DNA of 49,927 nucleotides from Dehalococcoidia bacterium (GTDB lineage Bacteria > Chloroflexota > Dehalococcoidia > E44-bin15 > DAOWNJ01): assembly GCA_034435115.1 (NCBI GenBank), contig DAOTXZ010000028.1, positions 1 through 49,927 on the forward strand, in the 5' to 3' direction. The position numbers and the translations under genes are program-made. The notes under the pieces were generated by a model that saw only the letters and a list, made by a program, of their open reading frames with translations, was not told the DNA's origin and did not search any database. Of this stretch, positions 2-21,808 are shown piece by piece. The first letter of the stretch is position 1; every line of letters starts with the position of its first letter.

Positions 2-2020
2 ATCCAGGAGTTGGGAGTAGACATCAGAACCAATACCCCGGTCAAAGACCTCAAGTCCATCTTCGAGCAGGGCTATGGTGCCATCTTCTTAGGCACCGGC
101 GCCCCAGTGAGCCAGAAGATGGGGATTCCCGGCGAGGCCACCCCGGGGGTGATGCATGCCCTCGACTTCCTGAGGCGGGTGAATAGCGGTGAGAAGGTCG
201 CTTTAGGCAATAGGGTAGCGGTGATCGGTGGTGGCAACGCCGCCATCGACTCCTCACGAGTGGCACTGCGCCTGGGCGCCAAGGAGGTATCAATTGTCTA
301 TCGCCGCTCCCGGGCTGAGATGCCAGCCCAGACCACCGAGATACAGGAGGCGGAGCGGGAGGGGGTAAAGATTCACTTCCTGGCAGCACCGACAAGGATT
401 CATGCGAAGGATGGCAAGATAGCCTCTATGGAATGCATCAGGATGGAATTGGGGGCGCCCGATGCCAGCGGTCGCCGTCGCCCTGTCCCCATCAAGGGCT
501 CAGAGTTCACCATGGCGGTGGACAATGTGATCATCGCCGTCGGGCAGGCGGTGGACAAGTCGGAGTTGCCCGAGCAGCTAGAATACACTAGCTGGGGCAC
601 TCTCAAGGTAGACCCCGTCACGCTGGAGACAAACATAGAGGGGGTATTCGCCGGTGGCGATGTCGTTTCTGGACCTGCCGGGGTCATTGAGGCCATCGCC
701 GCGGGCAAGGAGGCAGCCATCTCCATCGATCGCTATCTCAGGGGTCTCGACCCCAAGGAGGGAAGGCCGCAGCCGCTAAAGAGGGTGAGAGAGGTACCAA
801 AGAAGGGCATCGAGCGGAGGGAAAGGGCGGTTATGCCCATGCTCGATGTGAAGAAGCGAGCAGGCGCCTTCACCGAGGTGGAGCTTGGCTTTGACGAGAG
901 AACCGCCATTGCGGAAGCGAAGCGCTGCCTAAACTGCCCTGCCTGCTCAGAGTGCCTTGAGTGCGTCAAACTCTGCGAGGCAAAGGCCATCAATCACGAT
1001 ATGGAGGATGAGACGGTTGAGGTGGAGGTGGGGAACATAATTCTGGCCACTGGCTATCAAACCTTTGATCCCACCTCACTTCGCCAGTATGGCTATGGGC
1101 GGCTTCCCAATGTATTCACTGCCCTGGAGTTTGAGAGGCTAATCAACGCCGCAGGACCGACCAGCGGCGAGGTGATACTAAAGGATGGCTCTCACCCCAA
1201 GGAGGTGGCAATCATCCATTGTGTGGGCAGCCGCGATAAGAACTATCACGAGTACTGCTCGCGGGTGTGCTGTATGTACTCTATGAAGTTTGGCCATCTG
1301 GTGAGGGAGCATGTGCCGGGGGCCCAGGTGTACGAGTTCTACATCGACATGAGGAGCTTTGGCAAGGGCTTTGAGGAGTTCTATAACCGGGTACTCAACG
1401 AGGGCACCCTCTTTATTCGTGGCCGCCCTGCCGAGGTGACCGATGTTGCTGAGACCGACGAGGAGCGGGGCAAGCTCATCGTGGTCTGCGAGGATACCCT
1501 AGCTGGTGTCCAGCGCCGTATTCCAGTGGACATGGTTATCCTCAGCACTGCTCTTGAGCCTCAGGCCGATGCCGAAGAGGTCGCTCGTCTCTTTTCCATC
1601 AGCCGCAGCCCCGATGGCTTCTTCCTAGAGAAGCACCCAAAGCTTGACCCAGTGGCCACCATGACCGACGGTGTCTTCGTGGTCGGCTGCTGCCAGGGGC
1701 CCAAAGACATCCCCGATACCGTGGCCCAGGCCTCGGCAGCGGCAGCACGGGTGATAGCGATGATCACCAAGGGCAGAGTTCAGCTTGAGGCCATCACCGC
1801 AGCGATCGATGAGGAGAAATGCTCCGGGTGCAAGACCTGCGTTCTCCTCTGCCCTTATACTGCAATTACCTTCGACGAGGAGAGAAAGGTCTCCCGGGTC
1901 AACGAGGCCCTGTGCAAAGGGTGTGGCACCTGCGTCGCTGCCTGTCCCAGTGCTGCCATAACTCAAAGACACTTCACCACTGAACAAATCATGGCTGAGA
2001 TAGAAGGAGTGTTAGTATGA
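2..2020 (+). CDS. hdrA: HdrA-family flavoprotein with an N-terminal GltD/NfnB-like NAD(P)-binding module; 5' end lies outside the window
   Basis: The frame is open to the window start. It shows GltD-like Rossmann motifs ([20 protein letters not shown]). It also has the HdrA core ([16 protein letters not shown]) and two C-terminal ferredoxin motifs ([24 protein letters not shown]). The stop overlaps the next start (ATGA). Confidence 0.85.
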
Positions 2021-2469
2021 GTTTTGAGCCAAAGATCGTTGGTTTCTGCTGCAACTGGTGCTCCTACCGGGGGGCAGATATGGCGGGCACAGCCAGGATG
2101 AAGTGTGCCCCCAACGTTAGGATAGTGCGGGTTATGTGTAGCGGAAGGGTGGACCCCGTCTTCGTGCTCAAGGCCTTCAAGGAGGGAGCGGATGGGGTCT
2201 TGATCCTGGGCTGCCACCCCGGCGATTGCCACTACGCCGAGGGAAACTACAAGGCGGCCCGCCGTATCCCGCTGCTGAAGAAGATGCTGGAACAGTTTGG
2301 CATCGAGGGTGATAGGGTGCGTCTGGACTGGGTCTCCGCCTCTGAGGGGGATCGTTTTACCAAGATCATAAATGAAGTGACAGAGAAGATCAAAAAATTA
2401 GGGCCTCTCAGCCAGGATGAAAGGAGAGAGCATGCCAAAGTTGAAACTGGCTCTATACTGGTCCGCTAG
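2017..2469 (+). CDS. mvhD: Methyl-viologen-reducing hydrogenase delta subunit (MvhD/FlpD family)
   Basis: Characteristic [14 protein letters not shown] and [10 protein letters not shown] motifs. It is translationally coupled to hdrA. Confidence 0.9.
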
Positions 2470-3385
2470 CTGCGGCGGCTGCGATGTGGCCGTTCTGGAC
2501 ATCAATGAGAGAATCCTAGATGTGGCCCAGATCGCCGATATCGTTCTCTGGCCAGTAGCGATGGACTTCAAATATCATCACATCGAAGCTCTCGATGACA
2601 ACAGCATTGACGTTTGTCTGTGGAACGGTTCGGTGAGGAACTCGGAGCAGGAGCATGTTGCCAAATTGCTTCGGGCCAAGTCCAAGGTGATGGTGGCTTT
2701 CGGCTCCTGCGCCGTCTCCGGAGGCATCCCTGCGCTGGCAAACTTCATCAACCGTGATCTCGCCTTCGAGCGAGCCTACGTCGAGGCGCCCACCAATGAC
2801 AATCCAAATCGGGTGTTCCCCCAAACCTCGACCCAGGTCAAAGAAGGGACGCTGGAGCTTCCTGAGTTTTGGGATACTGTGCTTGCCCTGGGTCAGGTGG
2901 TGCCGGTGGAGTACTACCTGCCCGGCTGTCCCCCACCGGTCAAGCTCATCAACCAGGTAGTGGATGCCCTGGCCTCAGGAAACTTGCCACCCCCAGGATC
3001 TGTGATTGCTTCGGAGAAGACCCTGTGCGACGAGTGCCCCCGGGTCAAGAAAGAGAAGAACATCAACAAGGTCTACCGGGTGCATGAGATCATCCCCGAC
3101 CCGGAGAAGTGCCTCCTGGAGCAAGGGCTGATCTGCATGGGGCCGGCCACCAGGGGGGGGTGTGGTGCCAGTTGCATCCTGGTCAACATGCCCTGCCGTG
3201 GTTGCTTCGGCCCGCCCGCAGGGGTCTACGACCAGGGGGCTAAGATGCTCAGCGCCCTGGCCTCCATCTACGATGCCAAGAACGAAGGTGAGATCGCCCG
3301 AATGCTGGGGGAGGTTGTCGATCCAGCCGGCACCTTCTACCGCTTCGGAATGTCCACCTCGATGCTGGTAAGAAAGAGGATCTAG
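2432..3385 (+). CDS. mvhG: [NiFe]-hydrogenase small subunit, Mvh/group 3 type
   Basis: N-terminal [20 protein letters not shown] and CRGC Cys motifs. ATG 2432 is preceded by AAGGAGAG. The ORF-track start at 2417 is an alternative. Confidence 0.85.
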
Positions 3386-3392
3386 GCGAACC

Positions 3393-4859
3393 ATGAAAAG
3401 GATAACCATCGATCCAATAACAAGACTCGAAGGACATGGGAGGATAGAGATATTCCTGGACGATGAGGGCAATGTGGCCAATTCCTATCTTCAGGTGCCG
3501 GAGTTTCGCGGCTTTGAGAAGTTCTGCGAGGGAAGGCCGGTTGAGGAGCTACCCCGAATCACCCCCAGGATCTGTGGCGTCTGCCCCTCGGCCCACCATA
3601 TGGCCTCGACCAAAGCAGTAGACGCCGTGTTTCACGCCGACCCTCCCCCGGCAGCAAAAAAGCTGAGAGAGCTCTACTACTCGGCCCACATGTGTCACTC
3701 CCATATCGCCCACTTCTATGCACTAGCCGCTCCCGACTTTGTCCTCGGCCCTGATGCTGACCCCGCCCAGAGGAACATACTGGGGGTTATTGCCAAGGTG
3801 GGAATCGGGATCGGGGGCGAGGTGATCAAGCACCGCGCTTATGCCCAGGATATCCAGGCTGTCATCGGCGGCAAGGCAACTCATTCCGTCTGTGGTCTGC
3901 CCGGCGGGATGAGCCGACCGATCACTGAAGAGGAGAGGAAGGACTTTGAGGAGAAGGCCAAGTCCATGGTGGAGTTTGCCAAGTTCTCCCTGAAGCTCTT
4001 TGATGACATTGTCTTAGCCAATAAGGACTATATGAACTTGATCACCGGCGACATCTATACCATGAAGAGCTACTACATGGGCATGGTCGATGCCAAGAAC
4101 AAGGTGAACTTCTATGACGGCAATATCCGGGTGGTTGACCCCGAGGGAAAAGAGATTGCCAAATTTAAGCCTGCCGATTATCTGGATTACATCGGGGAGC
4201 ACACCGAGCCCTGGTCCTATCTCAAGTTCCCATTCCTGAAGAGAGTTGGCTGGAAGGGATTTACTGAGGGCAAGGAGAGCGGGGTATATCGGGTGGCACC
4301 GCTGGCGCGGCTGAATGCTGCCGACGGCATGGCGACCCCCCTAGCTCAGGAGGCCTACGAGAAGATGTATCAGACGCTGGGGGGTAAGCCGGTTCATGCC
4401 ACCCTGGCCTTCCACTGGGCGAGACTAGTTGAGCTCGTGTATGCCGCAGAACGGCTTCTGGAGCTCTCCCAGGACAAGGAGGTCACCGACCCCAACATTC
4501 GCACCATCCCCACTGCAACCCCTGATGAGGGGGTGGGGGTGGTCGAGGCGCCCCGGGGAACTCTATACCACCATTACAAGACCGATGATAAAGGCGTGGT
4601 GGAAAAGGTAAACCTCATTGTGGCCACCGTTCAGAACAATCCGGCGATGAACATGTCTATAAAGAAGGCTGCCCAGAAGCTGATCACCAAGGGCAAGGCA
4701 GCAACCGAGGGACTACTCAACATGGTGGAGATGGCCTTCCGCGCCTATGACCCCTGTCTTGCCTGTGCCACCCATTCCCTGCCCGGCCAGATGCCACTTG
4801 AGGTGATAATCCGCGACCCACAGGGGAACATCCTGGAAAGACTGAGCCGTAAGCTCTAG
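3393..4859 (+). CDS. mvhA: [NiFe]-hydrogenase large subunit, Mvh/group 3 type
   Basis: N-terminal RICGVCPSAHH and C-terminal DPCLACATH metal-site motifs. A C-terminal extension follows the His, consistent with endopeptidase processing. Confidence 0.92.
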   Translation: MKRITIDPITRLEGHGRIEIFLDDEGNVANSYLQVPEFRGFEKFCEGRPVEELPRITPRICGVCPSAHHMASTKAVDAVFHADPPPAAKKLRELYYSAHMCHSHIAHFYALAAPDFVLGPDADPAQRNILGVIAKVGIGIGGEVIKHRAYAQDIQAVIGGKATHSVCGLPGGMSRPITEEERKDFEEKAKSMVEFAKFSLKLFDDIVLANKDYMNLITGDIYTMKSYYMGMVDAKNKVNFYDGNIRVVDPEGKEIAKFKPADYLDYIGEHTEPWSYLKFPFLKRVGWKGFTEGKESGVYRVAPLARLNAADGMATPLAQEAYEKMYQTLGGKPVHATLAFHWARLVELVYAAERLLELSQDKEVTDPNIRTIPTATPDEGVGVVEAPRGTLYHHYKTDDKGVVEKVNLIVATVQNNPAMNMSIKKAAQKLITKGKAATEGLLNMVEMAFRAYDPCLACATHSLPGQMPLEVIIRDPQGNILERLSRKL

Positions 4860-4885
4860 GGCCCAGCTAGCCCGGGGGGCCCAAG

Positions 4886-5374
4886 TTGAAAACACTGGTT
4901 CTGGGACTGGGGAATCCGATTCTTAGCGACGACAGCGTGGGGCTTCGCATTGCTGAGGAGCTTAAAACCCTCTACAATGAGCAGGAAGTGACGGTGATGG
5001 CCACCGACATCGCCGGACTCGGCCTCCTCGACTTCATGCTGGGCTACGACAAGGTGATCATCATTGATTCCATTCAGACCAAAAAGGGCAGGGTTGGACA
5101 GGTCTATCGCCTAGATGCCCAGGACTTTGCCACCACCCGACACGCTGCCTCCCCCCACGATGTGAACCTCGCTACCGCCTTGGAACTGGGAAAGAGGCTT
5201 GGGCTCGCCATACCACAGGAGATAGTCATCTTTGCCATTGAGGCTCAAGATGTGACCACCTTCAGCGAGAGCCTGACCCCTGAGGTGGAACAGGCAATTC
5301 CCAAGGCCGTTCAGATAGTGGCCAGGGAGCTGGACGGCCGAGGGGTGAAGGGGAAAAACGACAAACAGATATAG
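4886..5374 (+). CDS. Hydrogenase maturation endopeptidase (HycI/FrhD/HoxW family)
   Basis: MKTLVLGLGNPILSDDSVG N-terminus and an H..D motif typical of the family. TTG start. It sits directly after the large subunit. Confidence 0.8.
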   Translation: MKTLVLGLGNPILSDDSVGLRIAEELKTLYNEQEVTVMATDIAGLGLLDFMLGYDKVIIIDSIQTKKGRVGQVYRLDAQDFATTRHAASPHDVNLATALELGKRLGLAIPQEIVIFAIEAQDVTTFSESLTPEVEQAIPKAVQIVARELDGRGVKGKNDKQI

Positions 5375-5414
5375 AGACACCAGGTCAGGCAATACAGCCT
5401 AGCCTGGTGTCTCT
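5373..5414. terminator. Bidirectional hairpin between convergent operons
   Basis: AGAGACACCAGG (5373-5384) pairs perfectly with CCTGGTGTCTCT (5403-5414), giving a 12-bp stem. It lies between the plus-strand gene ending at 5374 and the minus-strand gene ending at 5430. Confidence 0.6.
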
Positions 5415-5429
5415 GCGCCCAAACGGGGT

Positions 5430-6437
5430 CTATTGTGCTTTGGCTCGAGCCCGCTCCTCTTTCTTCCGTAAAGCCTCTCGTCTCACAGCAAGCTTAGCCT
5501 GTCTCCTGTCCAGCTCATCCTGCATTCCCTGACCGAACTCACAGATGGCGCACTGGAAGAGTCTGACGCAGAGCCTGTAGGAGACATCTCCGGTCAGGGC
5601 ATAGCGGCAGAGTCTCTGGTTGCCGGCTAACCCCTTGCGCCTCTCCAGCGCCTCGGTGAGCTCGGGTGTCTCCCCGGCTGCCGTCTGTTCTTGCATCATC
5701 TGGTCGAACTCGCAGGTGAGGCAGTCGTAGTTCCTGGTGCAGGCGCGATAGCCGACCACGCCGAGCTTCATCCAGACACAGGGCTTTATCGCCTCCTCAA
5801 CCAAGGCCTCACCCTCAACCTTGGGCTTCGCTGCCTCTTGCCTTGCCCGGTGGAGCAACACTCGAGCCTCGATGTTGCCCGGAGCCACACCCAGAACAGC
5901 CTCAAACTCCCTCACCGCCTCACCAAAGTGCCCCGCTTTTAGCTGCTCTTTGCCCCGCTCGAGATGGGCTGGCACCTCAGTCTCGGTTATGGTGATGACC
6001 TCTTCAACCCCAACCTCAACCCCCTCAGCTACAGTCTCCTCAACAGCAGCCTTCGGTCTTATCTCCACCTGCACCGGACCCAGGGTCTGCCTGATCAATC
6101 TCTCCAGGGCATCAAGGTCGAAGGGCTTGGGCAGATAATCGATGGCCCCGAGTTTCATTGCCTCCACCGCTGTTTCCACCGACGGATAAGCGGTGATGAT
6201 GACCCCCTTGAGCCCTGGCTGTCGCTTCCTCGCCTCCCGCAGCACCTCAAGCCCATCTTTTCCTGGTAACCTGAGGTCGAGAACCGCAATACTGAAGGCC
6301 CGCTCAGCAACCATCTTAAGCGCCTCTTCTCCATCCTCGGCAGTAGCTACCTCATAGCCGCTGTCAACTAGCCAGTCCCTGAGTGACTCACGCATAATTG
6401 CCTCGTCTTCCACTATCAGTAAAGGTCGTTGCCTCAT
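5430..6437 (-). CDS. Response-regulator receiver protein with a TPR-like linker and a duplicated 4-Cys C-terminal module
   Basis: Receiver motifs are present (LLIVEDE, VLDLRLPGKDG, ITAY, KP). The C-terminus has two repeats of C-x12/13-C-x5-C-x2-CEF. ATG 6437 has a GGGGGTG ribosome-binding site. The ORF-track start at 6479 lies upstream of the predicted transcription start. Confidence 0.8.
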   Translation of the reverse strand: MRQRPLLIVEDEAIMRESLRDWLVDSGYEVATAEDGEEALKMVAERAFSIAVLDLRLPGKDGLEVLREARKRQPGLKGVIITAYPSVETAVEAMKLGAIDYLPKPFDLDALERLIRQTLGPVQVEIRPKAAVEETVAEGVEVGVEEVITITETEVPAHLERGKEQLKAGHFGEAVREFEAVLGVAPGNIEARVLLHRARQEAAKPKVEGEALVEEAIKPCVWMKLGVVGYRACTRNYDCLTCEFDQMMQEQTAAGETPELTEALERRKGLAGNQRLCRYALTGDVSYRLCVRLFQCAICEFGQGMQDELDRRQAKLAVRREALRKKEERARAKAQ

Positions 6438-6486
6438 TTTTGTCACCCCCTTCTTTAGTTCTTTTACCGCTTCCGCCATCTATATT

Positions 6487-6502
6487 TGCAATTTTCTTGC
6501 CA
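6487..6502 (-). promoter_or_regulatory. Sigma-54 type -24/-12 promoter
   Basis: The minus strand reads TGGCAA-GAAAA-TTGCA, against the consensus TGGCAC-N5-TTGCW. The GG to GC spacing is correct. It lies about 50 nt upstream of ATG 6437. Confidence 0.6.
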
Positions 6503-6511
6503 AAATAAGAA

Positions 6512-6536
6512 GGTCATCCCAAAGTTTGGGATGACC
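6512..6536 (-). terminator. Hairpin terminator after the sigma-54/kinase/activator operon
   Basis: Perfect palindrome GGTCATCCCAAA-N-TTTGGGATGACC, followed on the minus strand by TTCTTATTTT. It is located 42 nt after the stop of the 6578-7939 gene. Confidence 0.5.
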
Positions 6537-6577
6537 CAGTTGGTCAGCTTGGTTGTCAGACGGTGTAAAACTATCAG

Positions 6578-7939
6578 TCAGTTGGTGTCTATTCTCTTTA
6601 CATCCAGCCCATATTTCTTTATTTTGTTATAGAGTGTCATCCGCGTAATCCCCAAGACCCTGGCAGCCTTGCTATAATTCCGCCTGGTTTCAGCGAGGAC
6701 GCTTAAGATATGGTCCTTTTCCACCTCCTCAAGGCTCTTCCCCGCCGAAGCCTGACGAGGCGAGGGCAGGTTTTGCAGAGATAAATCGGCGGCTGTAATC
6801 GTGCTATTCTTCGCCAGAACCACTGCCCTTTCGATGGCATTTTCCAGCTCCCGAACATTGCCCGGCCACTCATATTTCATGAGAAAGTCCATAGCATCGG
6901 GGGAAAATGTGGTGACCACTTTTTGATTTTCCAACGCAAACTTGTTCAAGAAATGTTGGGCTAAGAGGGGAATATCCTCCACCCTCTCCCTTAGCGGAGG
7001 CAATTGAATAGTAACCACATTCAGTCGGTAATAGAGGTCATCGCGGAATTCGCCTCTCCTCACTGCCTCCTTTAGATCCTTATTGGTGGCTGAGATGAGG
7101 CGCACATCGCTCTTAATTGTCTGAGTGCCACCGACCCTGGTGAACTCTCTCTCCTCGAGCACCCGCAGCAGATGAACCTGAACATTGGCGCTAATCTCCC
7201 CGATTTCATCCAAAAAGAGGGTCCCTTTGTGGGCCAGCTCAAATCTTCCTTTCCTTTGCGCTATGGCACCGGTGAAAGAGCCCTTTTCATGGCCAAATAG
7301 CTCGCTTTCCAGGAGGCTCTCAGGCAGGGCAGCACAGCTTACGGCGACAAACGGTTTATCCCGGCGGGGGCTCAAGTTATGGATGGCCCGAGCTACCAGC
7401 TCCTTACCGGTGCCGCTTTCGCCAGTGATCAGAACTGTAGCGTTGGTAGGAGCCACTGTCGTGACCACCTCGAATATCCGCTGCATTTTATGGCTCTTGG
7501 CAATGATATTCTCAAAGCGATAGCGCTCTTCTAACCGTTGGCGCAGGGCGAGGTTTTCTTCGATCAGCCCCTGATGCTCTACCAACTTCTTGATGAGCAA
7601 TTCCACCCGCTCCGGGCAAAATGGCTTCTCGATATAATCATAGGCCCCCTCTTTCATGGCAGCGATAGCCGTGGGTATGCTCCCATAGGCGGTGATGATG
7701 ATTACCTCAGTGCCGGGAAACATCTCTTTGACCCTCTTCATCAACTCGATGCCATCCATCCCCGGCATCACCAGGTCGGCGATAACGATCCCTATCCTCT
7801 CCTTATTGACAATCTCCATGGCCTGGGAGCCATCCCCAGCGGCAAACACTTGATAGCCGGCATTGTTGAGCCAGTCCACCAACGATTCGCGGACAACGGC
7901 CTCATCATCGACGACAAGGATTTTAGCCTTCCTATTCAC
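6578..7939 (-). CDS. Sigma-54-dependent response regulator (NtrC-family enhancer-binding protein)
   Basis: Receiver domain, AAA+ Walker A GESGTGKE, the GSFTGA loop (a GAFTGA variant), Walker B LFLDEIGE, and a C-terminal Fis-type HTH (AARVLGITRMTLYNKIKKYGL). Confidence 0.92.
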   Translation of the reverse strand: MNRKAKILVVDDEAVVRESLVDWLNNAGYQVFAAGDGSQAMEIVNKERIGIVIADLVMPGMDGIELMKRVKEMFPGTEVIIITAYGSIPTAIAAMKEGAYDYIEKPFCPERVELLIKKLVEHQGLIEENLALRQRLEERYRFENIIAKSHKMQRIFEVVTTVAPTNATVLITGESGTGKELVARAIHNLSPRRDKPFVAVSCAALPESLLESELFGHEKGSFTGAIAQRKGRFELAHKGTLFLDEIGEISANVQVHLLRVLEEREFTRVGGTQTIKSDVRLISATNKDLKEAVRRGEFRDDLYYRLNVVTIQLPPLRERVEDIPLLAQHFLNKFALENQKVVTTFSPDAMDFLMKYEWPGNVRELENAIERAVVLAKNSTITAADLSLQNLPSPRQASAGKSLEEVEKDHILSVLAETRRNYSKAARVLGITRMTLYNKIKKYGLDVKRIDTN

Positions 7940-9869
7940 GCCCGACCCTCAAATAGACACTAAACGTCGTTCCCTTTCCCACCTCGCTTTGAACCTCGAT
8001 TCTTCCTTTGTGTCGCTCGATAATGCCGTGAGTCACAGCCAGCCCCAAGCCGACACCCTTCCCCTTCTCCTTGGTGGTGAAAAAGGGGGTAAACAGCTTG
8101 CGCAGGTTCTCCTTGGAGATGCCACAGCCTGTATCCTGAACATCGACCCTGAGCTGACCATCACCAACAAGCCTGGTGCGAATGGTCAACTCCCCTCCCT
8201 GTGGCATTGCCTGAATGGCATTCAATATGAGATTGGTGAATACCTGTTGTAGCTGGTCGAAATCAGCGGTGATCAGTGGCAGCGACGGGCTTAGCTCCTT
8301 TATCACCTTAACGCCCTGCATCTGGGCCTGATGAGCTACTAGGGATATGGCTTTTTCTATAGCCTGATTGACATCCGTCTCCCTTAAAAGTGGCTCTGAT
8401 TGCCTGGCGAAATCCAGAAGATTGCGGATTACCTTCGAACTATGGCTGATCTCAGCCTCTATCTTCGAGAGGTAGCGCAGGGCCTCTTCCTTTGTCAGGG
8501 TGTCGCCCTCGGTCTTTTTCATCAATAATTTGGTGTAGACCAAGACACCGGCTAAAGGATTATTAATTTCGTGGGCAATGGCAGCAGCCATCTGGCCCAG
8601 CGAGGTCAGCTTCTCCGCTTGAATAAGCTCCTCTTGAGCAGTCTGTAACCGTTGAATCAGGTAGGGCCAGCACATCTCACTTTCAGCCAAGCCCTGACAG
8701 ACAGCAATGGCCAACTCCCGGCAAGAGGAATAGCCGCAAGCGCCGCAATTAAGCTGGTCTTCAGGGGCTGCCTTTTTGATATGGGCTAAGGCGCGGCTGA
8801 TTTCCTCTTCGCGCGGGGCATCGAGCGCCGTGAATCGATTGGTGAACCTCCGACTCAGGTCAAGGTCAGCATATTCCTTGGCGTCTCTCTCTGCTTGAGC
8901 AGGATCAGCCTCCCTCAGCGCATAATCGACGATGAGCTCCCTCCGTCCGCTAATTGATAAGTCGTTATAAATCGCTGGCCCACCAACGCAACCTTCGCAG
9001 AAGAAAAGATCCAGGAATCTAGTCCTGATCTTGCCCTTGGCGAAGTCTCGAAGGCACTTGACCACGCGCTCCTTGCCCTCACCGATGACGATATCGTTTG
9101 ACGAGATGTCGCTGGTGAGCCCGGCCACTTTGAGTAAACCCCCTGGAATAGCGTACAGGCGCCCAAGGTGCGACTTGGGGCCAGCGAATTGCCCCTCCTC
9201 CTCATGACCAGGGTCGATCCCTCTGGCAGCGAGCATTTCCTTAAGTTCAGCAAAGGTCAACACAGCATCAATGACACCGGCAACCTTTTCGTCCACCCTC
9301 TCAACTTTCTTGGCGACACAGGGGCCAATGAAGACTACCTTGGCCCTGGGATTATACCGCCACTTAATCAACCGGCCCATCGCTACCATGGGCGAAACGA
9401 GAGGCACCAGGTTGCCGATTAGCTGGGGATAGAATTTTTCAATGACCAAGACGACAGCAGGGCAGGTGGAGGAGATGATAGGCTTATCCCCATTTTGCTC
9501 CATCAGTCGCTGATATTCTCGGGCCACCAGTTCGGCACCAAAGGCAACCTCCATCACCTCGCTGAACCCCAGTTTCTCGAGGGCAGTCGCCATCTGCCGC
9601 GGGCGCACCTCAGCCCAGGCGGCAGGGAACGAGGAAGACAGGATGGCAATTACTGGATATTGCCCCAAGAGCTGCCAAACGATGCCAACATCATTCTCCA
9701 CTTGCTTGGCGCCGACGGCGCAGACCCGAACACAGGTGCCACAGGCAATGCAGCGCTCCTTCATCACCTCAGCCAGCCCATCCCTGACCCTGATGGCCTT
9801 CACCGGGCAACTGCGGATGCAGGCATAGCACCGTTTACATTTGTCTCGCGACGTGAACACAATGCTCAT
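7932..9869 (-). CDS. Sensor histidine kinase with N-terminal 2x[4Fe-4S] ferredoxin, an [FeFe]-hydrogenase-like domain and an RnfB-type Fe-S domain
   Basis: Ferredoxin motifs CKRCYACIRSCP and CIACGTCVRVC. H-cluster-like motifs SSTCPAV, GPCVAKKVE and FCEGCVGGP. Also CGACGYSSC..C, then HisKA (AHEINNPL) and HATPase (DTGCGI, GKGVGLGL). ATG 9869 overlaps the upstream stop as ATGA. Confidence 0.87.
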   Translation of the reverse strand: MSIVFTSRDKCKRCYACIRSCPVKAIRVRDGLAEVMKERCIACGTCVRVCAVGAKQVENDVGIVWQLLGQYPVIAILSSSFPAAWAEVRPRQMATALEKLGFSEVMEVAFGAELVAREYQRLMEQNGDKPIISSTCPAVVLVIEKFYPQLIGNLVPLVSPMVAMGRLIKWRYNPRAKVVFIGPCVAKKVERVDEKVAGVIDAVLTFAELKEMLAARGIDPGHEEEGQFAGPKSHLGRLYAIPGGLLKVAGLTSDISSNDIVIGEGKERVVKCLRDFAKGKIRTRFLDLFFCEGCVGGPAIYNDLSISGRRELIVDYALREADPAQAERDAKEYADLDLSRRFTNRFTALDAPREEEISRALAHIKKAAPEDQLNCGACGYSSCRELAIAVCQGLAESEMCWPYLIQRLQTAQEELIQAEKLTSLGQMAAAIAHEINNPLAGVLVYTKLLMKKTEGDTLTKEEALRYLSKIEAEISHSSKVIRNLLDFARQSEPLLRETDVNQAIEKAISLVAHQAQMQGVKVIKELSPSLPLITADFDQLQQVFTNLILNAIQAMPQGGELTIRTRLVGDGQLRVDVQDTGCGISKENLRKLFTPFFTTKEKGKGVGLGLAVTHGIIERHKGRIEVQSEVGKGTTFSVYLRVGRE

Positions 9870-10978
9870 CTGACACCCTTTCCTTTTCTCATCCAAGACG
9901 CAGGTATCTTAAGTTCACTCCTGAGCTTCGCCACCGAGCGCCGGGAAAGTGAGACACCCAATTCCTCCAGCTTGGCCTTAATTGCCTGGTCAGTGAGAGG
10001 CTCCTCCTCAGCTTCAAGGAGTTTGATGAGCAATTCCTTCTTGAACCTCTTCGGTCGGGGGAAAAAGTCCTTAATAGGTTTCTCCTCCCCCCAAGGGGTA
10101 TCGATGCTCTTGCCCCAGATAGCCCGGCTGATTGTGCTTGGGGCGACTCCGATCATCTTGGCCAGTTCCTTTTGGCTTAAAGGCAAAAGGGCCTTCGGGT
10201 CAGCCGATTCCAGGTACAGGCTCTGTTTTGCCACGATATTCTTCAATATTTGATACATTGTGTCCTTGCGGCTATTAATTAATTCCAACTTCTTAAATAA
10301 CCGCCTGATTTCCCTGGCCTCGGTCTCGCTGAAAAAGCCTTCACCTTTTAAGCCTTCAAACCTTTCATAATCGATCACATATCTCCCACGGGCAACGGAG
10401 GGCGAGGAGTAGCCAATCAAAAAGCCCTCCGGACCCCTCTCCACCGATGCCACCTTGGAGTAATGGGTCAGCCCTGGGGCGATGGTTAAAGGGTGATAGA
10501 ACTCGCTCGAGATAGCGAAGTCGTTAATGAGCTCGTTTATCCGCTCTACCTGAGAGGGCTCCAAATCACACTCCCGAGCGATTTCGTCCACGGTCATCCC
10601 CGCTTCGGGGAATAGGAAATATCGCTTGAATTTCTCCAACCCCAAATTGTTTATCCAGCCTACCACGGCTTCCCTGTTCAGCAAGATGGATTCCAGATCC
10701 AAAGAGCCTTTATCGGCTGCGATCTCTTCTTTAAGCTCATAAAAATGGGATGAAACATCGGTTCTGGGGAATCTCTGGTAGCGGATAATCCTTTCCCTCT
10801 GGCAGAGCCTGAAGAGAGGGTTCTTCTCTATCTCAGCGATGAGACGCTGAAACTCCCCTTCGGACATTTCCAGTAGGTTCGCCTGTTCCAAGCGGGCGAT
10901 TAGTTTAAACCCCTGCTGTGTCTTCAGCGATTGTGTTTGCTCGACTTCCAATGTATTCAAGCTCATACCAGCCCCCAT
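9866..10978 (-). CDS. rpoN: RNA polymerase sigma-54 factor, compact form (about 366-370 aa)
   Basis: Region I-like Gln/Leu N-terminus ending EIEKNPLF, a core-binding region, HTH PSTISRAI, and the RpoN box SRRSVAKLRSELKIP. An alternative start is ATG 10966. Confidence 0.82.
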   Translation of the reverse strand: MGAGMSLNTLEVEQTQSLKTQQGFKLIARLEQANLLEMSEGEFQRLIAEIEKNPLFRLCQRERIIRYQRFPRTDVSSHFYELKEEIAADKGSLDLESILLNREAVVGWINNLGLEKFKRYFLFPEAGMTVDEIARECDLEPSQVERINELINDFAISSEFYHPLTIAPGLTHYSKVASVERGPEGFLIGYSSPSVARGRYVIDYERFEGLKGEGFFSETEAREIRRLFKKLELINSRKDTMYQILKNIVAKQSLYLESADPKALLPLSQKELAKMIGVAPSTISRAIWGKSIDTPWGEEKPIKDFFPRPKRFKKELLIKLLEAEEEPLTDQAIKAKLEELGVSLSRRSVAKLRSELKIPASWMRKGKGVR

Positions 10979-11084
10979 CTATATGAGCTACGATTTCCCA
11001 CAGATGACGCTGAGGAGAACCGATCGCATAGGTGGCCCCGGCCTTCTCGTCACCTCAGACGGGCGAAAACCGAACTGCGCAACA

Positions 11085-11294
11085 CTAACCGCGCTTTTTG
11101 GCCCCTAGCCACAAGTTCGCGCTCCTCTCCGGCAGGCTCAGCCCCCAGCCCCGCCCCAGCTCGCTTCTCCCGGCCGACCCTAGTCCTTGGGGGCGCGTTG
11201 CCAAGACTACCCCGCCGACAATGGCAAACCCAATTGCAGCGGGGATGCCGATGTAAATAACCAAAACTAATAGAATCACTAGAGCGCTTCCCAT
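11085..11294 (-). CDS. Hypothetical small membrane protein
   Basis: Strong AAGGAGGAGG ribosome-binding site 6 nt upstream of the ATG. The N-terminal ~30 residues are hydrophobic (ALVILLVLVIYIGIPAAIGFAIVGGVVLA). The C-terminal half is low-complexity, so confidence is low. Confidence 0.35.
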   Translation of the reverse strand: MGSALVILLVLVIYIGIPAAIGFAIVGGVVLATRPQGLGSAGRSELGRGWGLSLPERSANLWLGAKKRG

Positions 11295-11487
11295 CGGCTA
11301 CCTCCTCCTTCTGAGCATAGCTTACCATCCACGATGTATGAACACATCCGCTGGCCAGCCTATGCTCCGGCGAGCAATAAGCCTAAAAAGCTTTGTTGGT
11401 TTCCTAGGGATTTGTGCGGGGTGACAATACAGAGGAGTAGGTCAACTGCCCTAGAAGGGATAAGTATCTTCGCTTAAAGGGGAAACA

Positions 11488-11561
11488 CGACCCCGAGGGG
11501 ATTCGAACCCCCGATCTCCACCGTGACAGGGTGGCATGTTAGTCCGCTACACTACGGGGCC
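11488..11561 (-). tRNA. tRNA-Asp (GTC)
   Basis: The minus strand folds by hand into a cloverleaf. Acceptor stem GGCCCCG/CGGGGTC, anticodon arm CCACC-CTGTCAC-GGTGG, T-arm GGGGGTTCGAATCCCC, discriminator G. No CCA is encoded. Confidence 0.9.
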
Positions 11562-11611
11562 AGAGATAAACCACCTTGCTCATTCTATCAAGAGCCTGCT
11601 ATGTTGTCAAG

Positions 11612-11640
11612 CTAAAGGGGGTTGAAAAAGGACCACGACT
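11612..11640 (+). promoter_or_regulatory. Sigma-70 type promoter of the pyr operon
   Basis: TTGAAA, a 17-nt spacer, then TATAGT, located upstream of the pyr leader. Confidence 0.5.
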
Positions 11641-11689
11641 GTGGTATAGTAATCTAACTAAATAGTATATTATTGTTCAAACCTTTAAA

Positions 11690-11773
11690 TCAGTCCCGAG
11701 AGGCTGGTAAGGGGAGAGAAGAGGAAAAACGGGTTCAAAAAACCCCTTGCCAGCAAAAAGGCAAGGGGTTTTT
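11690..11773 (+). promoter_or_regulatory. PyrR-binding leader with intrinsic terminator (pyrimidine attenuator)
   Basis: AGUCCCGAGAGGCU matches the conserved PyrR binding-loop core. Terminator arm AAAAAACCCCTTGCC (11737-11751) pairs with GGCAAGGGGTTTTT (11760-11773). GGTAAGGGG (11706-11714) could form an antiterminator. Confidence 0.7.
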
Positions 11774-11774
11774 A

Positions 11775-12320
11775 ATGCCTGAAAAGACCATAATGAATGA
11801 GGAGGATATCCGACGAGCCCTCGTTCGCATTGCCCATGAGATTGTGGAGAGGAACAAGGGCTGTAGCCAATTGGTCTTTATCGGCATGCAGACCCGTGGG
11901 GTGCCTCTAGCCAGAAGAATAACAGCCAAAATAGAGGAATTTGAGCACGCCGCGGTGCCTGTCGGTGAGTTGGACATCAACCTATACCGAGACGATCTCC
12001 CCGCCCTAGCCTTAAAGCCTCATATCCGCCCCACTAATATCCCCACCGATATCGCTGGTAAACGAGTTATCCTGGTTGATGATGTCCTGTATACCGGGCG
12101 AAGCATACGAGCCGCTATGGATGCCATCATCGATTTTGGGCGACCACAATCCATCCAGCTAGCAGTGCTTGTTGACCGCGGACATCGCGAGCTCCCCATC
12201 CGCGCCGATTATATAGGAAGGAACATACCCACCTCAAGATATGAGGAGGTCGCAGTGCGGGTAAAGGAAATCGACGGCAGGGACGAGGTGGCTATTATCA
12301 AGGGCGAGGGAACATCATGA
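11775..12320 (+). CDS. pyrR: Bifunctional pyrimidine operon regulator / uracil phosphoribosyltransferase PyrR
   Basis: The PRTase motif [17 protein letters not shown] and the N-terminus [16 protein letters not shown] match PyrR. The ORF-track start at 11673 would read through the attenuator. Confidence 0.9.
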
Positions 12321-13300
12321 AGACTACAGAGCAACAAGAAACTCTCTCTGGGGCCTCCTTAGCGCCACCCTGGCGGCATCGCCATATCCTCGACCTGGAT
12401 GACTTCTCCCGCCAGGAAATAGAGCTTGTCTTTAAGACAACAGATGCTATGAAAGAGATTCTATCCCGCGAGATCAAGAGGGTGCCCACCCTGCGCGGCA
12501 AAACCATTATCACCCTTTTTTATGAGCCGAGCACCAGGACCAGGGTCTCCTTTGAACTGGCAGCAAAGAACCTAGGTGCTGATGTAGCCTCACTCATCGC
12601 CTCGGCAAGCAGTGTGGTCAAAGGGGAATCTCTCATTGATACTGTCTCCGCCCTACAGGCGCTGGGCGCTGACATTATTGTGATGCGCCACCCCCAATCG
12701 GGCGCCCCTTACCTCGTGGCTCAGCACCTTGGGGTGAGCGTGATCAATGCTGGAGATGGCTGGCATGCCCACCCCACCCAAGCCCTCCTCGACCTCTACA
12801 CAATCCAGCAGAGAATAGGGAGGGTCGAAGGACTGAAGGTGGTCATTATTGGAGATATTATGCACAGCCGGGTGGCTCGCTCCAATATCTGGGGCCTGAC
12901 CCTTATGGGTGCCGAGGTAGTCCTCTGCGGCCCCCCCACCCTTCTGCCAATCGGGCTGGACAGCGAGGCTGCCCTTCCTAGGGTTTTGATTGAGACAAAC
13001 CTGGATCATGCTATTCGGGAGGCTGATGTGGTGATGCCACTTCGCCTGCAACTTGAAAGGCAAAAACGAGGGCTAATCCCAAGCATTCGCGAGTATGCCG
13101 AGCTTTACCAGCTCAATGGGAGGCGGCTTAAGATGGCAAAACCCTCCGCTCTTGTCCTCCACCCAGGACCCATGAACGAGGGGGTGGAGATCGCCCCTGA
13201 TGTTGCCCATGGGGCACAGTCAGTGATCGAGCAGCAGGTGACCAACGGGGTAGCAGTGCGCATGGCTCTGCTTTATATACTGGCAAGGGGTGGCAAATGA
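12317..13300 (+). CDS. pyrB: Aspartate carbamoyltransferase catalytic subunit
   Basis: [13 protein letters not shown] and HPGP motifs. The ATGA start overlaps pyrR. Confidence 0.95.
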
Positions 13301-14676
13301 TACAGCCCCTGTTGATTAAGGGTGGTCGTATTATTGACCCCAGCCAAGGGATCGACCATTCCGGCAACATCCTCATCAAAGATGGCACGATTGCCTGGCT
13401 ACTCAGGGATGAAGGGCAGGAAACCTGCCTTCCTGAGCATTGCCTAGTGCTCGATGCCCACCGCCTTGTGGTCTGCCCTGGATTTATCGATCTTCACTGC
13501 CACCTCCGAGAACCGGGCTTCGAGGAGAAGGAAACCATCGCCACCGGCACCGAGGCAGCAGCAAGGGGTGGGTTCACCACCGTCTGCTGCATGCCAAACA
13601 CCAATCCTCCTATCGACAATAAGGCGGTGGTGGATTATGTGAAGGACAAGGCCAGGAAGAGGGGGATTATTCGGGTTCTCCCTATAGGCTGCATCAGCAA
13701 GGGGCGAAGGGGGGAGGAGCTCGCTGAGATGGGCGAGCTCGCCCAAGCCGGGGTGGTGGCATATAGTGATGATAGCGACCCGGTAAGGGACTCCCGGCTT
13801 ATGCGTCACGCCCTCGAGTATAGCCGCAATTTCGGCTTGCCCATTATCGACCACTGCGAGGATACCACACTCACCGAAGACGGGGTGATGAACGAAGGCT
13901 GGGTGGCAACAAGGCTCGGGCTCAGAGGGATGCCAACCATCGCTGAGGAGATTATGGTTGCCCGGGATATTGCCCTTGCTGAACTAACCAAAGGAAGACT
14001 TCATATCGCTCATGTGAGCACCCGGGGCTCGGTTGAGCTCATCCGCCGCGCCAAGGAGAAGGGGGTCGCCATCACCGCCGAGGTTACGCCCCATCACCTG
14101 ACCCTGACCGAGGAAAGGGTGATGGGCAACGAGGCGGCACCCCAACCCCTGTCACTCCTCTCTTATGATACCAATGCCAAGGTGAAACCGCCACTGCGGA
14201 CAAGGAGGGAAATCGAGGCGCTGATTCTGGGGCTGAAGGAGGGCGTCATCGATGCCATCGCCACAGATCACGCCCCCCATACTGAGGTCGACAAGAGGTG
14301 TGAGTTCGGACTCGCCGCCTTCGGCATCAGCGGTCTGGAGACGGCACTGGGGGCGCTCATGGGCCTTGTCCATAGTGGAGAGCTTGATCTGCCACTGCTT
14401 ATCTCAAAGCTCACCATAGAGCCAGCAAGGATCATCGGAAAGGAAATTGGCACTTTGAGGATGGGTGCCCCAGGCGATGTAACTATCTTTGACCCCGAGG
14501 CGGAGTGGGTGGTCGATCCAAAGGCTTTCGCCTCCAAAGGCAAAAACACCCCCCTCGCCGGGCGCATCCTCAAGGGCAGGGTGATGGCTACTGTTTGTGG
14601 CGGGAAGATTGTGTTTCAGGACAAGCATCTTCGGCTGGAGAAAAGCCACGACATTAAGGAAAGAGTCCGCGAGTGA
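13297..14676 (+). CDS. pyrC: Dihydroorotase
   Basis: [10 protein letters not shown] metal motif and amidohydrolase fold signatures. It overlaps pyrB and carA. Confidence 0.9.
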
Positions 14677-21202: not shown

Positions 21203-21218
21203 TGGCAGGCTGCTTGCT
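21203..21218 (+). promoter_or_regulatory. Sigma-54 type -24/-12 promoter candidate
   Basis: TGGCAG-GCTGC-TTGCT with correct GG/GC spacing. It lies 120 nt upstream of the DUF134 gene, in an intergenic region. Confidence 0.45.
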
Positions 21219-21337: not shown

Positions 21338-21808
21338 ATGCCGAGACCGCCGAAATGTCGCAGGGTAGCCTTTTTGCCGGAGGTGACCTACTTCAAGCCA
21401 GCAGGCATACCGCTAAAGGCTGTGGAAGAGGTACGCCTTTCGGTAGAAGAGGCTGAGGCCATACGCCTCAAAGACCTGGAGGGCCTGGAGCAGGAGCAGG
21501 GTGCGGAGAAGATGAATATCTCTCGCCCCACCTTTCAGAGGGTATTAGCTTCTGCGCGCCAGAAGATAGCCGATGCTCTACTTAACGGAAAGGCGATAAG
21601 GATTGAGGGCGGTAGTTTTGAGATGGCTTATCGGCGATTCAGATGCCTGAATGGTCACCAATGGGAAGTACCCTTTGAACTGATGATTAGCACGCCTCCC
21701 CAGTCCTGTCCGACCTGCAACACAGCAGGCATTGAGCCGCTGTTGCCGGGAATATTTGGCTGGGGTGGAAGAGGCTGGGGGAGACATCGCGGAAGACCCA
21801 TGAGATAG
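21338..21808 (+). CDS. DUF134/UPF0251-type putative DNA-binding protein with a Zn-ribbon and a Gly/Arg/Trp tail
   Basis: Family-typical N-terminus MPRPPKCRRVAFLPEVTYFKPAGIP and HTH-like MNISRPTFQRVLASARQKIA. Then C..H..CPTC and the tail GWGGRGWGRHRGRPMR. Confidence 0.85.
   Translation: MPRPPKCRRVAFLPEVTYFKPAGIPLKAVEEVRLSVEEAEAIRLKDLEGLEQEQGAEKMNISRPTFQRVLASARQKIADALLNGKAIRIEGGSFEMAYRRFRCLNGHQWEVPFELMISTPPQSCPTCNTAGIEPLLPGIFGWGGRGWGRHRGRPMR

Follow-up and report, generated by a model that had tools for sequence, protein, structure and literature searches.

What does a histidine kinase sense when its input module is an [FeFe]-hydrogenase domain that lacks the proton-relay cysteine? The question is raised by a gene in a 49,927-nucleotide (nt) stretch of a Dehalococcoidia genome (contig DAOTXZ010000028.1, assembly GCA_034435115.1), which we refer to as the window. 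An earlier note, made from the letters of this window, had described a histidine kinase with a hydrogenase-like Fe-S sensor devoid of the relay Cys, a description borne out by Pfam, alignments, AlphaFold2 modelling and Foldseek. We analyzed the product of this gene, P0001, together with its relatives and the sigma-54 cassette that contains it. The reading we tentatively prefer, at only just short of an even chance, is that the H-domain of this lineage is a hydrogenase-derived [4Fe-4S] redox sensor that would work through its clusters only and not through H2 turnover.

P0001 is a predicted histidine kinase with a degenerate [FeFe]-hydrogenase sensor

Public assemblies annotate the kinase gene with the same coordinates that the earlier note had given, within an open reading frame (ORF) spanning 7932..9896, and the gene is also present on contig CAZYRL010000049.1 of the metagenome-assembled genome (MAG) GCA_964649655.1 and on a Joint Genome Institute (JGI) metagenome contig. 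The gene and its parts are:

7932..9869 (-), sensor histidine kinase gene, P0001, 645 amino acids (aa) (ORF call, Pfam, public annotation)
9708..9851 (-), 2x[4Fe-4S] ferredoxin domain with motifs CKRCYACIRSCP and CIACGTCVRVCA (Pfam Fer4 families, motif positions)
8976..9653 (-), [FeFe]-hydrogenase H-domain, residues 73-298 (Pfam, HMMER alignments, Foldseek)
9453..9473 (-), L1 motif SSTCPAV (motif search)
9300..9326 (-), L2 motif GPCVAKKVE (motif search)
8976..9002 (-), L3 motif FCEGCVGGP, with C291 and C294 in Cx2C spacing (motif search)
8670..8747 (-), accessory cluster motif C375-x2-C378-x4-C383-x16-C400 (CGACGYSSC-x16-C; PF04060) (Pfam, motif positions)
8397..8666 (-), predicted continuous helix, residues 401-452, leading from the last cluster Cys, C400, into DHp/HisKA (AlphaFold2 secondary structure, HisKA match)
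8553..8576 (-), H-box AHEINNPL, with the codon of the phospho-acceptor His433 at 8571..8573 (motif position)
7944..8264 (-), HATPase_c domain with N, G1 (DTGCGI), F and G2 (GVGLGLA) boxes (Pfam, motifs)

The two ferredoxin motifs and the SSTCPAV, GPCVAKKVE, FCEGCVGGP and CGACGYSSC motifs can all be found in P0001, in agreement with the earlier note, and Pfam Fer4 families matched the two N-terminal motifs. The profile search suggested there gave a match of P0001 to Fe_hyd_lg_C with E=1.8e-50 and 172 bits (cut-off 22), covering the whole profile (positions 3-245 of 245). The proposal that an RnfB-type cluster domain is followed by HisKA/HATPase held as well, with matches to FeS (PF04060, E=1.3e-9), HisKA (E=1.6e-14) and HATPase_c (E=2.1e-29). 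Pfam gave no match to a PAS domain in P0001, the domain whose C-terminal presence is used to define M2f/group C (PMC11216029, PMC8163306), and HisKA/HATPase_c come straight after the cluster domain. All boxes of HisKA-class kinases are present (AHEINNPL, LILNAIQA, DTGCGI, FTPFFTTK and GVGLGLA), and the protein is predicted to be soluble, with a 19-residue Kyte-Doolittle mean that peaks at 1.56 and no transmembrane segment.

The AlphaFold2 model of P0001, built on 70 homologues, had a mean predicted local distance difference test (pLDDT) value of 93.7. In this model a single unbroken helix (residues 401-452) begins right after C400 and runs through His433. Foldseek superposed the first ~420-440 residues of the model on solved [FeFe]-hydrogenases with template modelling (TM) scores of 0.44-0.48, normalised to the whole 645-aa query, the matches to CpI, DdH, TkHydA1 and CbA5H having E values of ~1e-18 to 1e-20 over 405-445 columns. 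The C-terminus of the model superposed on the ZraS kinase core 9jfj (E=2e-41, TM 0.8, normalised to the target). We rejected P0001 as an AtoS or ZraS orthologue: the kinase core is alike, but the scores are far under the full-length equivalog cut-offs. P0001 is a predicted histidine kinase with an NtrB/ZraS-like catalytic core.

To compare the H-domain with solved hydrogenases, we aligned P0001 with HMMER to CpI, TmHydA, TkHydA1 and HDCR HydA2. In the alignment to CpI, another of the checks suggested by the earlier note, T135 of P0001 falls on the proton relay C299, C136 on C300, G182-P183-C184 on M353-P354-C355, K187 on K358 and E190 on E361, and the similarity well exceeds what chance would give. 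In L3, one residue is deleted between the cysteines (C291-E-G-C294) relative to the solved hydrogenases, resulting in Cx2C and not Cx3C spacing; the shortening that the earlier note had seen is therefore real, and it marks a clade (see below). The [4Fe-4S]H ligands C136, C184, C291 and C294 (CpI C300, C355, C499 and C503) are all present and are 97-100% conserved in all groups of relatives. Residues of the proton pathway are replaced (CpI C299 by T, S319 by V and E282 by R), and the motifs of catalytic group A (TSCCPxW in L1, MPCxxKxxE in L2) are not found, since M353 is G and L3 reads LFFCEGCVGGP rather than ExMxCxxxCxxGGGQP. NCBIfam TIGR04105 scored 202 bits on P0001, against a cut-off of 450. 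P0001 does have the features of a HydS protein, namely N-terminal 2x[4Fe-4S], an H-domain without the relay Cys and a C-terminal Cx2Cx4Cx16C motif, the latter being the hallmark of HydS of groups C and D (PMC8163306). Read from its sequence and model, P0001 carries a full but catalytically degenerate [FeFe]-hydrogenase module used as a kinase sensor.

A Cx2C signature marks a large clade of putative signalling proteins

A search of 5.8 billion proteins identified more than 120 proteins of the same architecture with 61-82% identity to P0001, those with names coming from Dehalococcoidia/Chloroflexota MAGs. In a scan of genomes, eight Dehalococcoidia/Chloroflexota species representatives proved to carry the gene, and there was one distant match in Bacteroidetes. 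When 1.84 billion cluster representatives were searched exhaustively with HMMER, 959 relatives of the sensor region were obtained at E<1e-30, and the best 150 of these 959 fall cleanly into two L3 types. The Cx2C type comprises 74 of the best 150 with [VLI]-D-x-L-F-C-x-G-C-I-x-G-P, plus 8 with CCxGC, mostly of 600-1035 aa. The Cx3C type accounts for 64 of them, with [VI]-E-x-x-A-C-x-x-x-C-I-x-G-P, and these proteins are mostly of ~570 aa. The L3 of TmHydS, as read from published primers, is E-A-S267-A-C-Y-G-S-C, a Cx3C sequence that differs from the LFFCEGC of P0001. That of TamHydS was read as L-A-C-I-G-G-C, again Cx3C, from a published coding sequence damaged by optical character recognition in which one base was restored. 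Cx2C is thus the signature of a large signalling clade and is absent from the characterised HydS enzymes.

Among 70 Cx2C representatives, 44 have HATPase_c (42 of them HisKA too), 14 a sigma-54 AAA+ activator and 4 GGDEF. With outputs as different as a kinase, a sigma-54 activator and GGDEF attached to it, the module is a portable input domain. Throughout hundreds of homologues, 16 of 16 cluster cysteines are kept. These observations bear on the idea that P0001 is a catalytically relevant hydrogenase merely carrying a kinase, or else a non-functional hydrogenase relic with a constitutive kinase. TmHydS and TamHydS, which also lack the relay Cys, do turn over H2 at a low, measurable rate (PMC8163306, PMC10055695), but with the proton-transfer residues gone from P0001, the cluster cysteines retained so widely and the variety of fused outputs pointing to a selected input domain, we consider this idea very improbable.

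Two relatives were found beside metabolic or maturation genes. P0121 (55% identity; a HisKA_3 kinase plus a NarL-type regulator) adjoins sat-aprBA. P0125 is a kinase-fused Cx2C relative with 49% identity over the sensor, encoded in the complete 4.9-Mb genome CP070648.1, where its gene directly follows hydG-hydE-hydF and an NfnAB-like pair:

CP070648.1 (locus L017), 4133..12046, hydG, hydE, hydF, NfnAB-like pair, Cx2C HydS-like histidine kinase, single-domain receiver, receiver-PAS hybrid kinase

The hydG of this locus is readable in its C-terminal part, with CTSCYR, while hydE carries Radical_SAM and hydF carries HydF_dimer/HydF_tetramer. This cluster may be a system whose maturases are dedicated to a sensory hydrogenase-kinase. 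The diiron-pocket signature of P0125 is wholly canonical (12 of 12, scored as described below). Because a Cx2C protein with a canonical pocket adjoins hydG-hydE-hydF, Cx2C spacing does not exclude an H-cluster, and we discarded it as an argument against one.

In addition, a giant relative of 4122 aa (P0253) has 13 separate stretches that match the H-domain region (33% identity), making it a multi-H-domain protein.

The diiron pocket is relaxed in the Dehalococcoidia clade

To analyze the surroundings of the diiron subsite, we mapped the 13 residues around that of CpI onto the alignment, with a pocket score out of 12, and compared their conservation with that of random H-domain positions in three groups:

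Cx3C (TmHydS-like), n=64, mean pairwise identity 39%: pocket far more conserved than random positions (P<1e-4), score 11.4
Other Cx2C, n=73, mean pairwise identity 39%: pocket far more conserved than random (P=4e-4), score 10.0
Dehalococcoidia clade, n=120, mean pairwise identity 69%: pocket not conserved above random positions (P=0.44), score 7.6

In the clade, CpI A230-P231-S232 (APS) corresponds to S (99%), S/A (79%/15%) and S/A/P/T, respectively, and in P0001 itself APS has become SSS; the TmHydS-like group, by contrast, retains APS and a conserved pocket. Positions 268, 299, 325, 417 and 418 are also variable in the clade and, together with 231 and 232, they rank between the 57th and the 90th percentile of variability. 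The 120 clade sequences display 70 distinct pocket signatures, which differ even inside one L3 subtype. C300, C355, C499, C503, G353, P324, K358, E361 and A272 are kept at 98-100%, and the four [4Fe-4S]H cysteines among them reach 100%. This pattern is the one expected if the [4Fe-4S]H site were under selection and the diiron site were unselected or being retuned. The relaxed pocket and the change of APS to SSx favour, at the level of sequence, a cluster-only redox sensor. They also lend independent support, short of proof, to the reservation in the earlier note that [4Fe-4S] clusters may be all that the domain binds.

Maturase genes are missing from the window, as the earlier note had stated: Pfam on all called genes detected no hydE, hydF or hydG and no Radical_SAM/BATS or HydF domains. 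In 11 related clade loci, tblastn with HydE, HydF and HydG of the P0125 locus found none within 10 kb, the scope of that search being +/-10 kb. Their absence from a 50-kb window is poor evidence by itself.

A genuine H2 sensor is a substantial possibility, which we rate as rather less than probable. HydEFG would be encoded elsewhere in the genome, the kinase would hold a full H-cluster, slow H2 oxidation would reduce the cluster chain and thereby switch the kinase, and the sigma-54 cascade would tune Hdr/Mvh. Signalling by slow H2 oxidation has been proposed for TmHydS and TamHydS. In line with such a sensor, P0001 has the complete HydS architecture including Cx2Cx4Cx16C, keeps the four Cys of the H-domain as well as K358/E361, and has L1 and L2 nearly identical to those of TmHydS (FITTACPVVV, FVGPCIAKK) and TamHydS (VISSACPAVV, compared with IISSTCPAVV in P0001). 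In a study of Hydrogenedentota, 21 of 53 group C1 genes adjoin group A3 hydrogenases (PMC11406978). On the other side, the pocket is relaxed specifically in this clade with loss of the APS motif, maturases are near 0 of 12 clade loci, and both biochemically validated HydS enzymes are Cx3C, not Cx2C. Moreover, the authors of the Hydrogenedentota study found no P1-P3 motifs in C1 proteins and doubted that they sense H2 (PMC11406978).

Several observations weigh against a cluster-only redox sensor, which we nevertheless prefer. The clade sample consists of the top 120 matches to the query and is hence biased. Retention of K358, E361, G353, P324 and A272 would also suit a retained diiron site, and the pocket variation is partly ordered by subclade, so that it could reflect tuning of H2 affinity and not decay. 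TamHydS, which binds an H-cluster in vitro (PMC8163306), scores 9 of 12 on the same pocket score, and the positions of C299 and M497 commonly vary in bona fide sensory hydrogenases (PMC10055695). Furthermore, P0125, a Cx2C kinase 49% identical to P0001 and with a 12/12 pocket, is encoded right after hydG-hydE-hydF, and the cassette is frequently near hydrogenase genes, with Hdr/MvhD/[NiFe] group-3 genes less than 10 kb away in 5 of 10 related loci. The last two observations also count in favour of an H2 sensor.

The kinase belongs to a conserved sigma-54 cassette

The genes and signals that accompany the kinase gene are:

9866..10978 (-), short sigma-54-family factor, annotated as 366 aa (9866..10966) (Sigma54_DBD, helix-turn-helix (HTH), RpoN box SRRSVAKLR, Gln-rich region-I-like N-terminus)
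6578..7939 (-), NtrC-type response regulator/sigma-54 enhancer-binding protein (REC, AAA+ with Walker A GESGTGKE and GSFTGA loop, Fis-type HTH)
6511..6537 (-), intrinsic-terminator-like hairpin with a 12-bp stem and a T-run, closing the sigma54-kinase-activator operon (related loci have analogous hairpins)
6487..6502 (-), predicted sigma-54 -24/-12 promoter TGGCAAGAAAATTGCA (TGGCA-N6-AATTGC, comparative conservation)
5430..6437 (-), predicted target, REC plus TPR-like plus two C-x12/13-C-x5-C-x2-C-E-F repeats (double-Cys4) (ORF, Pfam, comparative loci)

The stop of the sigma-54-like gene and the ATG of the kinase gene (9869) overlap as ATGA, and the GTG start of the activator overlaps the kinase stop by 8 nt (GTGAATAG). 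With overlaps at both junctions, the three genes are predicted to form a translationally coupled operon. The order sigma-54-like factor, kinase, NtrC-type activator and receiver is kept in all Dehalococcoidia loci with contigs long enough. The earlier note had paired the kinase with the adjacent activator, and signalling from one to the other is supported by the 8-nt overlap and by this gene order, which all related loci share.

In every related locus, the gene immediately before that of the kinase codes for the sigma-54-like protein (366-370 aa), of which at least 120 homologues of ~365 aa were found, with PF04552 only and apparently confined to Dehalococcoidia. No Pfam match to Sigma54_AID or Sigma54_CBD was obtained even at E<=10, and the N-terminal 250 aa gave no credible Pfam/NCBIfam family. 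The AlphaFold2 model is of moderate quality (pLDDT 71), and its top structural matches are sigma-54 chains. We infer that this short factor is competent as a sigma-54, and it may be a minimal version dedicated to a single promoter.

The predicted promoter lies 49 nt upstream of the receiver gene. TGGCA and AATTGC are invariant in 9 of 9 Dehalococcoidia loci while the flanks average 58% identity, the site is the sole strong match in each 10-22 kb locus, and the target proteins of these nine loci are 51-63% identical. In the whole window, the sigma-54 pattern with 1 mismatch matched 64 times, compared with a mean of 48 in shuffled sequences, and 3 of 100 shuffles reached 64. It is comparative conservation only that makes the site at 6487..6502 convincing, because the whole-window count is barely above that of the shuffles. 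The activator's sole recognisable local target would accordingly be the downstream receiver gene and not a hydrogenase operon, and the data support a predicted chain that runs from the sensor kinase to the activator, to the sigma-54 promoter and to the receiver/Cys4 protein. The Cys-rich C-terminus of the target protein gave no credible Pfam/NCBIfam family. Among the 5.8 billion proteins it has 174 homologues, most of them stand-alone TPR+Cys4 proteins of ~205 aa from Dehalococcoidia annotated as hypothetical, and the double-Cys4 domain appears to be new.

If the H-domain is a cluster-only redox sensor, its signal would be the low-potential electron pool or how reduced the cell is, the diiron subsite being lost or dispensable. 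The redox state of the Fe-S chain would affect how the protein is folded near the C-terminal cluster and the signalling helix, and this conformational change would set autophosphorylation of His433. The phosphate would pass to the receiver Asp of the activator (in IADLVMPGMDG), which, at the invariant -24/-12 promoter, would remodel RNA polymerase bound to the sigma-54 factor that the cassette itself encodes. In this way the receiver-TPR-double-Cys4 gene would be turned on, its product acting further downstream, with the nearby Hdr/Mvh-type electron-bifurcating and [NiFe]-hydrogenase systems as plausible ultimate targets. The architecture, the conserved cassette and the conserved promoter are the demonstrated parts of this proposal.

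A cluster-only H-domain is not without precedent: eukaryotic Nar1/NARFL (IOP1), which functions in cytosolic Fe-S protein assembly, keeps the H-domain cysteines and holds only [4Fe-4S] clusters, with no HydEFG. The precedent is one by analogy, and Nar1/NARFL is unlike P0001 in having no kinase and no Cx2Cx4Cx16C motif and in keeping Cx3C. In its full form the proposal is that a HydS-type H2 sensor lost its diiron subsite and became a pure [4Fe-4S] redox sensor, a counterpart of Nar1, that is wired by a helix to a kinase and controls a private sigma-54 regulon with a double-Cys4 protein as sole product. We regard this full form as quite possible, if less than probable.

Two further features were noted in the cassette loci. 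In most loci the sigma-54 promoter is preceded, at a distance of ~90-110 nt, by a conserved TTTCTTTACA-like element that lies just past the activator stop (window ~6555-6575; locus L008 ~7960-7975) and could be an enhancer half-site (activator-binding) or -35-like. In locus L006, the region downstream of the activator (13292..13450) contains a terminator, the promoter in degenerate form (TTGGCAGAAGAATTAC) and coding sequence for a piece of the Cys4 protein that ends in DYDCLTCEFDQLM*. A complete receiver-Cys4 gene, preceded by a sigma-54 promoter of its own, is located upstream of the sigma-54-like gene and adjoins an extra kinase. The relic and the relocated intact gene indicate rearrangement of the cassette.

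Genomic surroundings of the cassette

The cassette converges in the window with an operon for energy metabolism:

11..5374 (+), HdrA-like flavoprotein (GltD/NfnB-like N-terminus), MvhD, MvhG, MvhA (group-3c-type [NiFe] hydrogenase) and HycI-type protease; convergent operon (Pfam/NCBIfam)

At a relaxed threshold, no sigma-54 promoter was found before the Hdr/Mvh operons of L006 or L007, and the start of the operon in the window is off the contig. We thus dropped direct control of the neighbouring hydrogenase operon by the activator, given that no such promoter precedes the operons of L006 and L007. Control of Hdr/Mvh by the cassette, taken from the neighbourhood alone, would be a guess. The HdrA-like gene itself (window 11..2020 (+); locus L001 17850..20957) encodes HdrA fused to a GltD/NfnB-like flavoprotein that uses NAD(P)H, and on the longer JGI contig the product has 1035 aa. 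The fusion suggests that the Mvh-type [NiFe] hydrogenase may be coupled to a pyridine-nucleotide-linked bifurcating module and not to HdrBC.

Upstream of the cassette are a tRNA-Asp(GTC) gene at 11487..11562 (-) and, with it, a near-consensus extended -10 sigma-70 promoter, TTGACA-17-TGnTAGAAT, at 11582..11610 (-). A small ORF at 11085..11294, between this tRNA gene and the sigma-54-like gene, would encode a hydrophobic peptide of 69 aa. A weaker sigma-54-like match, TGGCAGGCTGCTTGCT, at 21203..21218 (+), precedes by ~120 nt a DUF134/Sigma70_r4_2 gene (21338..21808). The latter heads a cluster extending to ~31 kb that encodes Nitro_FeMo-Co proteins, CbiA/ParA-Fer4 ATPases, an ABC transporter, FeS_assembly_P/ParA and NifU_N.

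The Fe-S assembly-type genes at 23-31 kb in the window (NifU_N, FeS_assembly_P/ParA, Nitro_FeMo-Co, CbiA-Fer4) fit a sensor of oxidants or of Fe-S integrity (O2, NO, reactive species, iron/sulfur supply), in which cluster loss or oxidation would switch the kinase by an FNR/NsrR-type logic. The four predicted clusters in a strict-anaerobe lineage and the Cys-rich nature of the target protein would suit it too. Nothing specific points to such a sensor, however. The Fe-S genes are at least 13 kb away and are not kept beside the cassette in other loci, and the conserved multi-cluster wire and the HydS ancestry better suit reversible electron transfer. We therefore regard an oxidant or Fe-S integrity sensor as improbable.

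Relation to known sensory hydrogenases and significance

The type of protein that P0001 represents is already known, namely the putative, kinase-linked sensory [FeFe]-hydrogenases, to which P0001 adds a member. In HydDB, [FeFe] group C1 bears the label "histidine kinase-linked (putative)" (PMC5037454), and the 2024 Hydrogenedentota study described C1 proteins with HATPase_c in which P1-P3 were hardly found and H2 sensing was questioned (PMC11406978). TmHydS and TamHydS have been characterised spectroscopically in vitro (PMC10055695, PMC8163306, PMC13104023). The class is hence better known than the earlier note allowed in calling it largely uncharacterised.

TmHydS (Thermotoga maritima, group C, M2f) resembles P0001 in its two N-terminal [4Fe-4S] motifs, H-domain and C-terminal Cx2Cx4Cx16C, in the replacement of the relay Cys (by Ala in TmHydS and Thr in P0001), in the changes of M353 to Gly and F417 to Tyr and in an almost identical L1/L2. 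TmHydS, however, has a PAS end and no kinase, whereas the module of P0001 is joined directly to HisKA/HATPase_c. TamHydS (Thermoanaerobacter mathranii, group D, M2e) shares the three-part Fe-S architecture without PAS, and its genome neighbours are a kinase-like ATPase and a regulator (PMC8163306). Unlike the kinase-fused P0001, it is a stand-alone protein of ~450 aa with M353 changed to Ser, E361 changed to Ser, the APS motif retained and a Cx3C L3.

The C1 proteins of HydDB and P0001 are alike in tying a hydrogenase-like sensor to a histidine kinase, in their hard-to-recognise P1-P3 motifs and in their proposed regulatory role. P0001 suits C1 by its fused kinase and by the published description of C1 (PMC11406978), and is set beside it by description only. 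The reports on C1 (PMC5037454, PMC11406978) do not include the Cx2C signature, the pocket relaxation in Dehalococcoidia or the sigma-54 cassette, and many Hydrogenedentota C1 genes adjoin [FeFe] group A3 enzymes, whereas the neighbours of P0001 are [NiFe]/Hdr genes. Sigma-54 enhancer-binding proteins with an N-terminal Fer4/Fe_hyd_lg_C/FeS regulatory domain have been noted in Clostridiales (PMC6615313). In these fusions, as in the P0001 cassette, a common sensor module feeds sigma-54-dependent transcription, and the 14 sigma-54 activators among the 70 Cx2C representatives are one-component fusions of this kind. The cassette of P0001 is the two-component version, with a separate kinase and receiver-type activator and with the sigma factor in the same operon.

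In Cupriavidus necator, the HoxBC-HoxJ-HoxA system uses a crippled regulatory [NiFe]-hydrogenase to signal through a histidine kinase to an NtrC-type sigma-54 activator of hydrogen metabolism. It shares the logic of the P0001 cassette, but its metal site and protein family ([NiFe]) are unrelated, its sensor and kinase are separate, and its targets are hydrogenase operons, while the only detectable target of the P0001 cassette is the receiver gene. Regulatory [NiFe]-hydrogenases are listed as group 2b (PMC5037454).

In the papers that we searched, neither the cassette of Dehalococcoidia nor the split into Cx2C and Cx3C types nor the relaxed pocket was found described, and nothing relevant emerged on Dehalococcoidia maturases, sigma-54 or the P0001 kinase. 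What is new is the Cx2C clade signature, the hydGEF-linked Cx2C kinase, the relaxed Dehalococcoidia pocket and the conserved sigma-54 cassette with its invariant promoter.

The direct fusion to a kinase bears on how putative sensory [FeFe]-hydrogenases relay signals. The activator partner is identified, the sigma factor is dedicated and the promoter is defined, so that the whole chain could be rebuilt in vitro and followed by autophosphorylation, phosphotransfer and transcription. Setting the hydGEF-linked relatives with a canonical pocket against the relaxed Dehalococcoidia clade offers a comparative test of H2 versus general redox sensing. If the H-domain of P0001 is indeed a pure [4Fe-4S] redox sensor, the Cx2C clade would hold both H-cluster-bearing members (hydGEF-linked, with a canonical pocket) and cluster-only members, and this mixed clade would be a natural series for studying how sensory hydrogenases transmit their signal. 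For Dehalococcoidia, the cassette represents a conserved regulator beside Hdr/Mvh-type energy metabolism.

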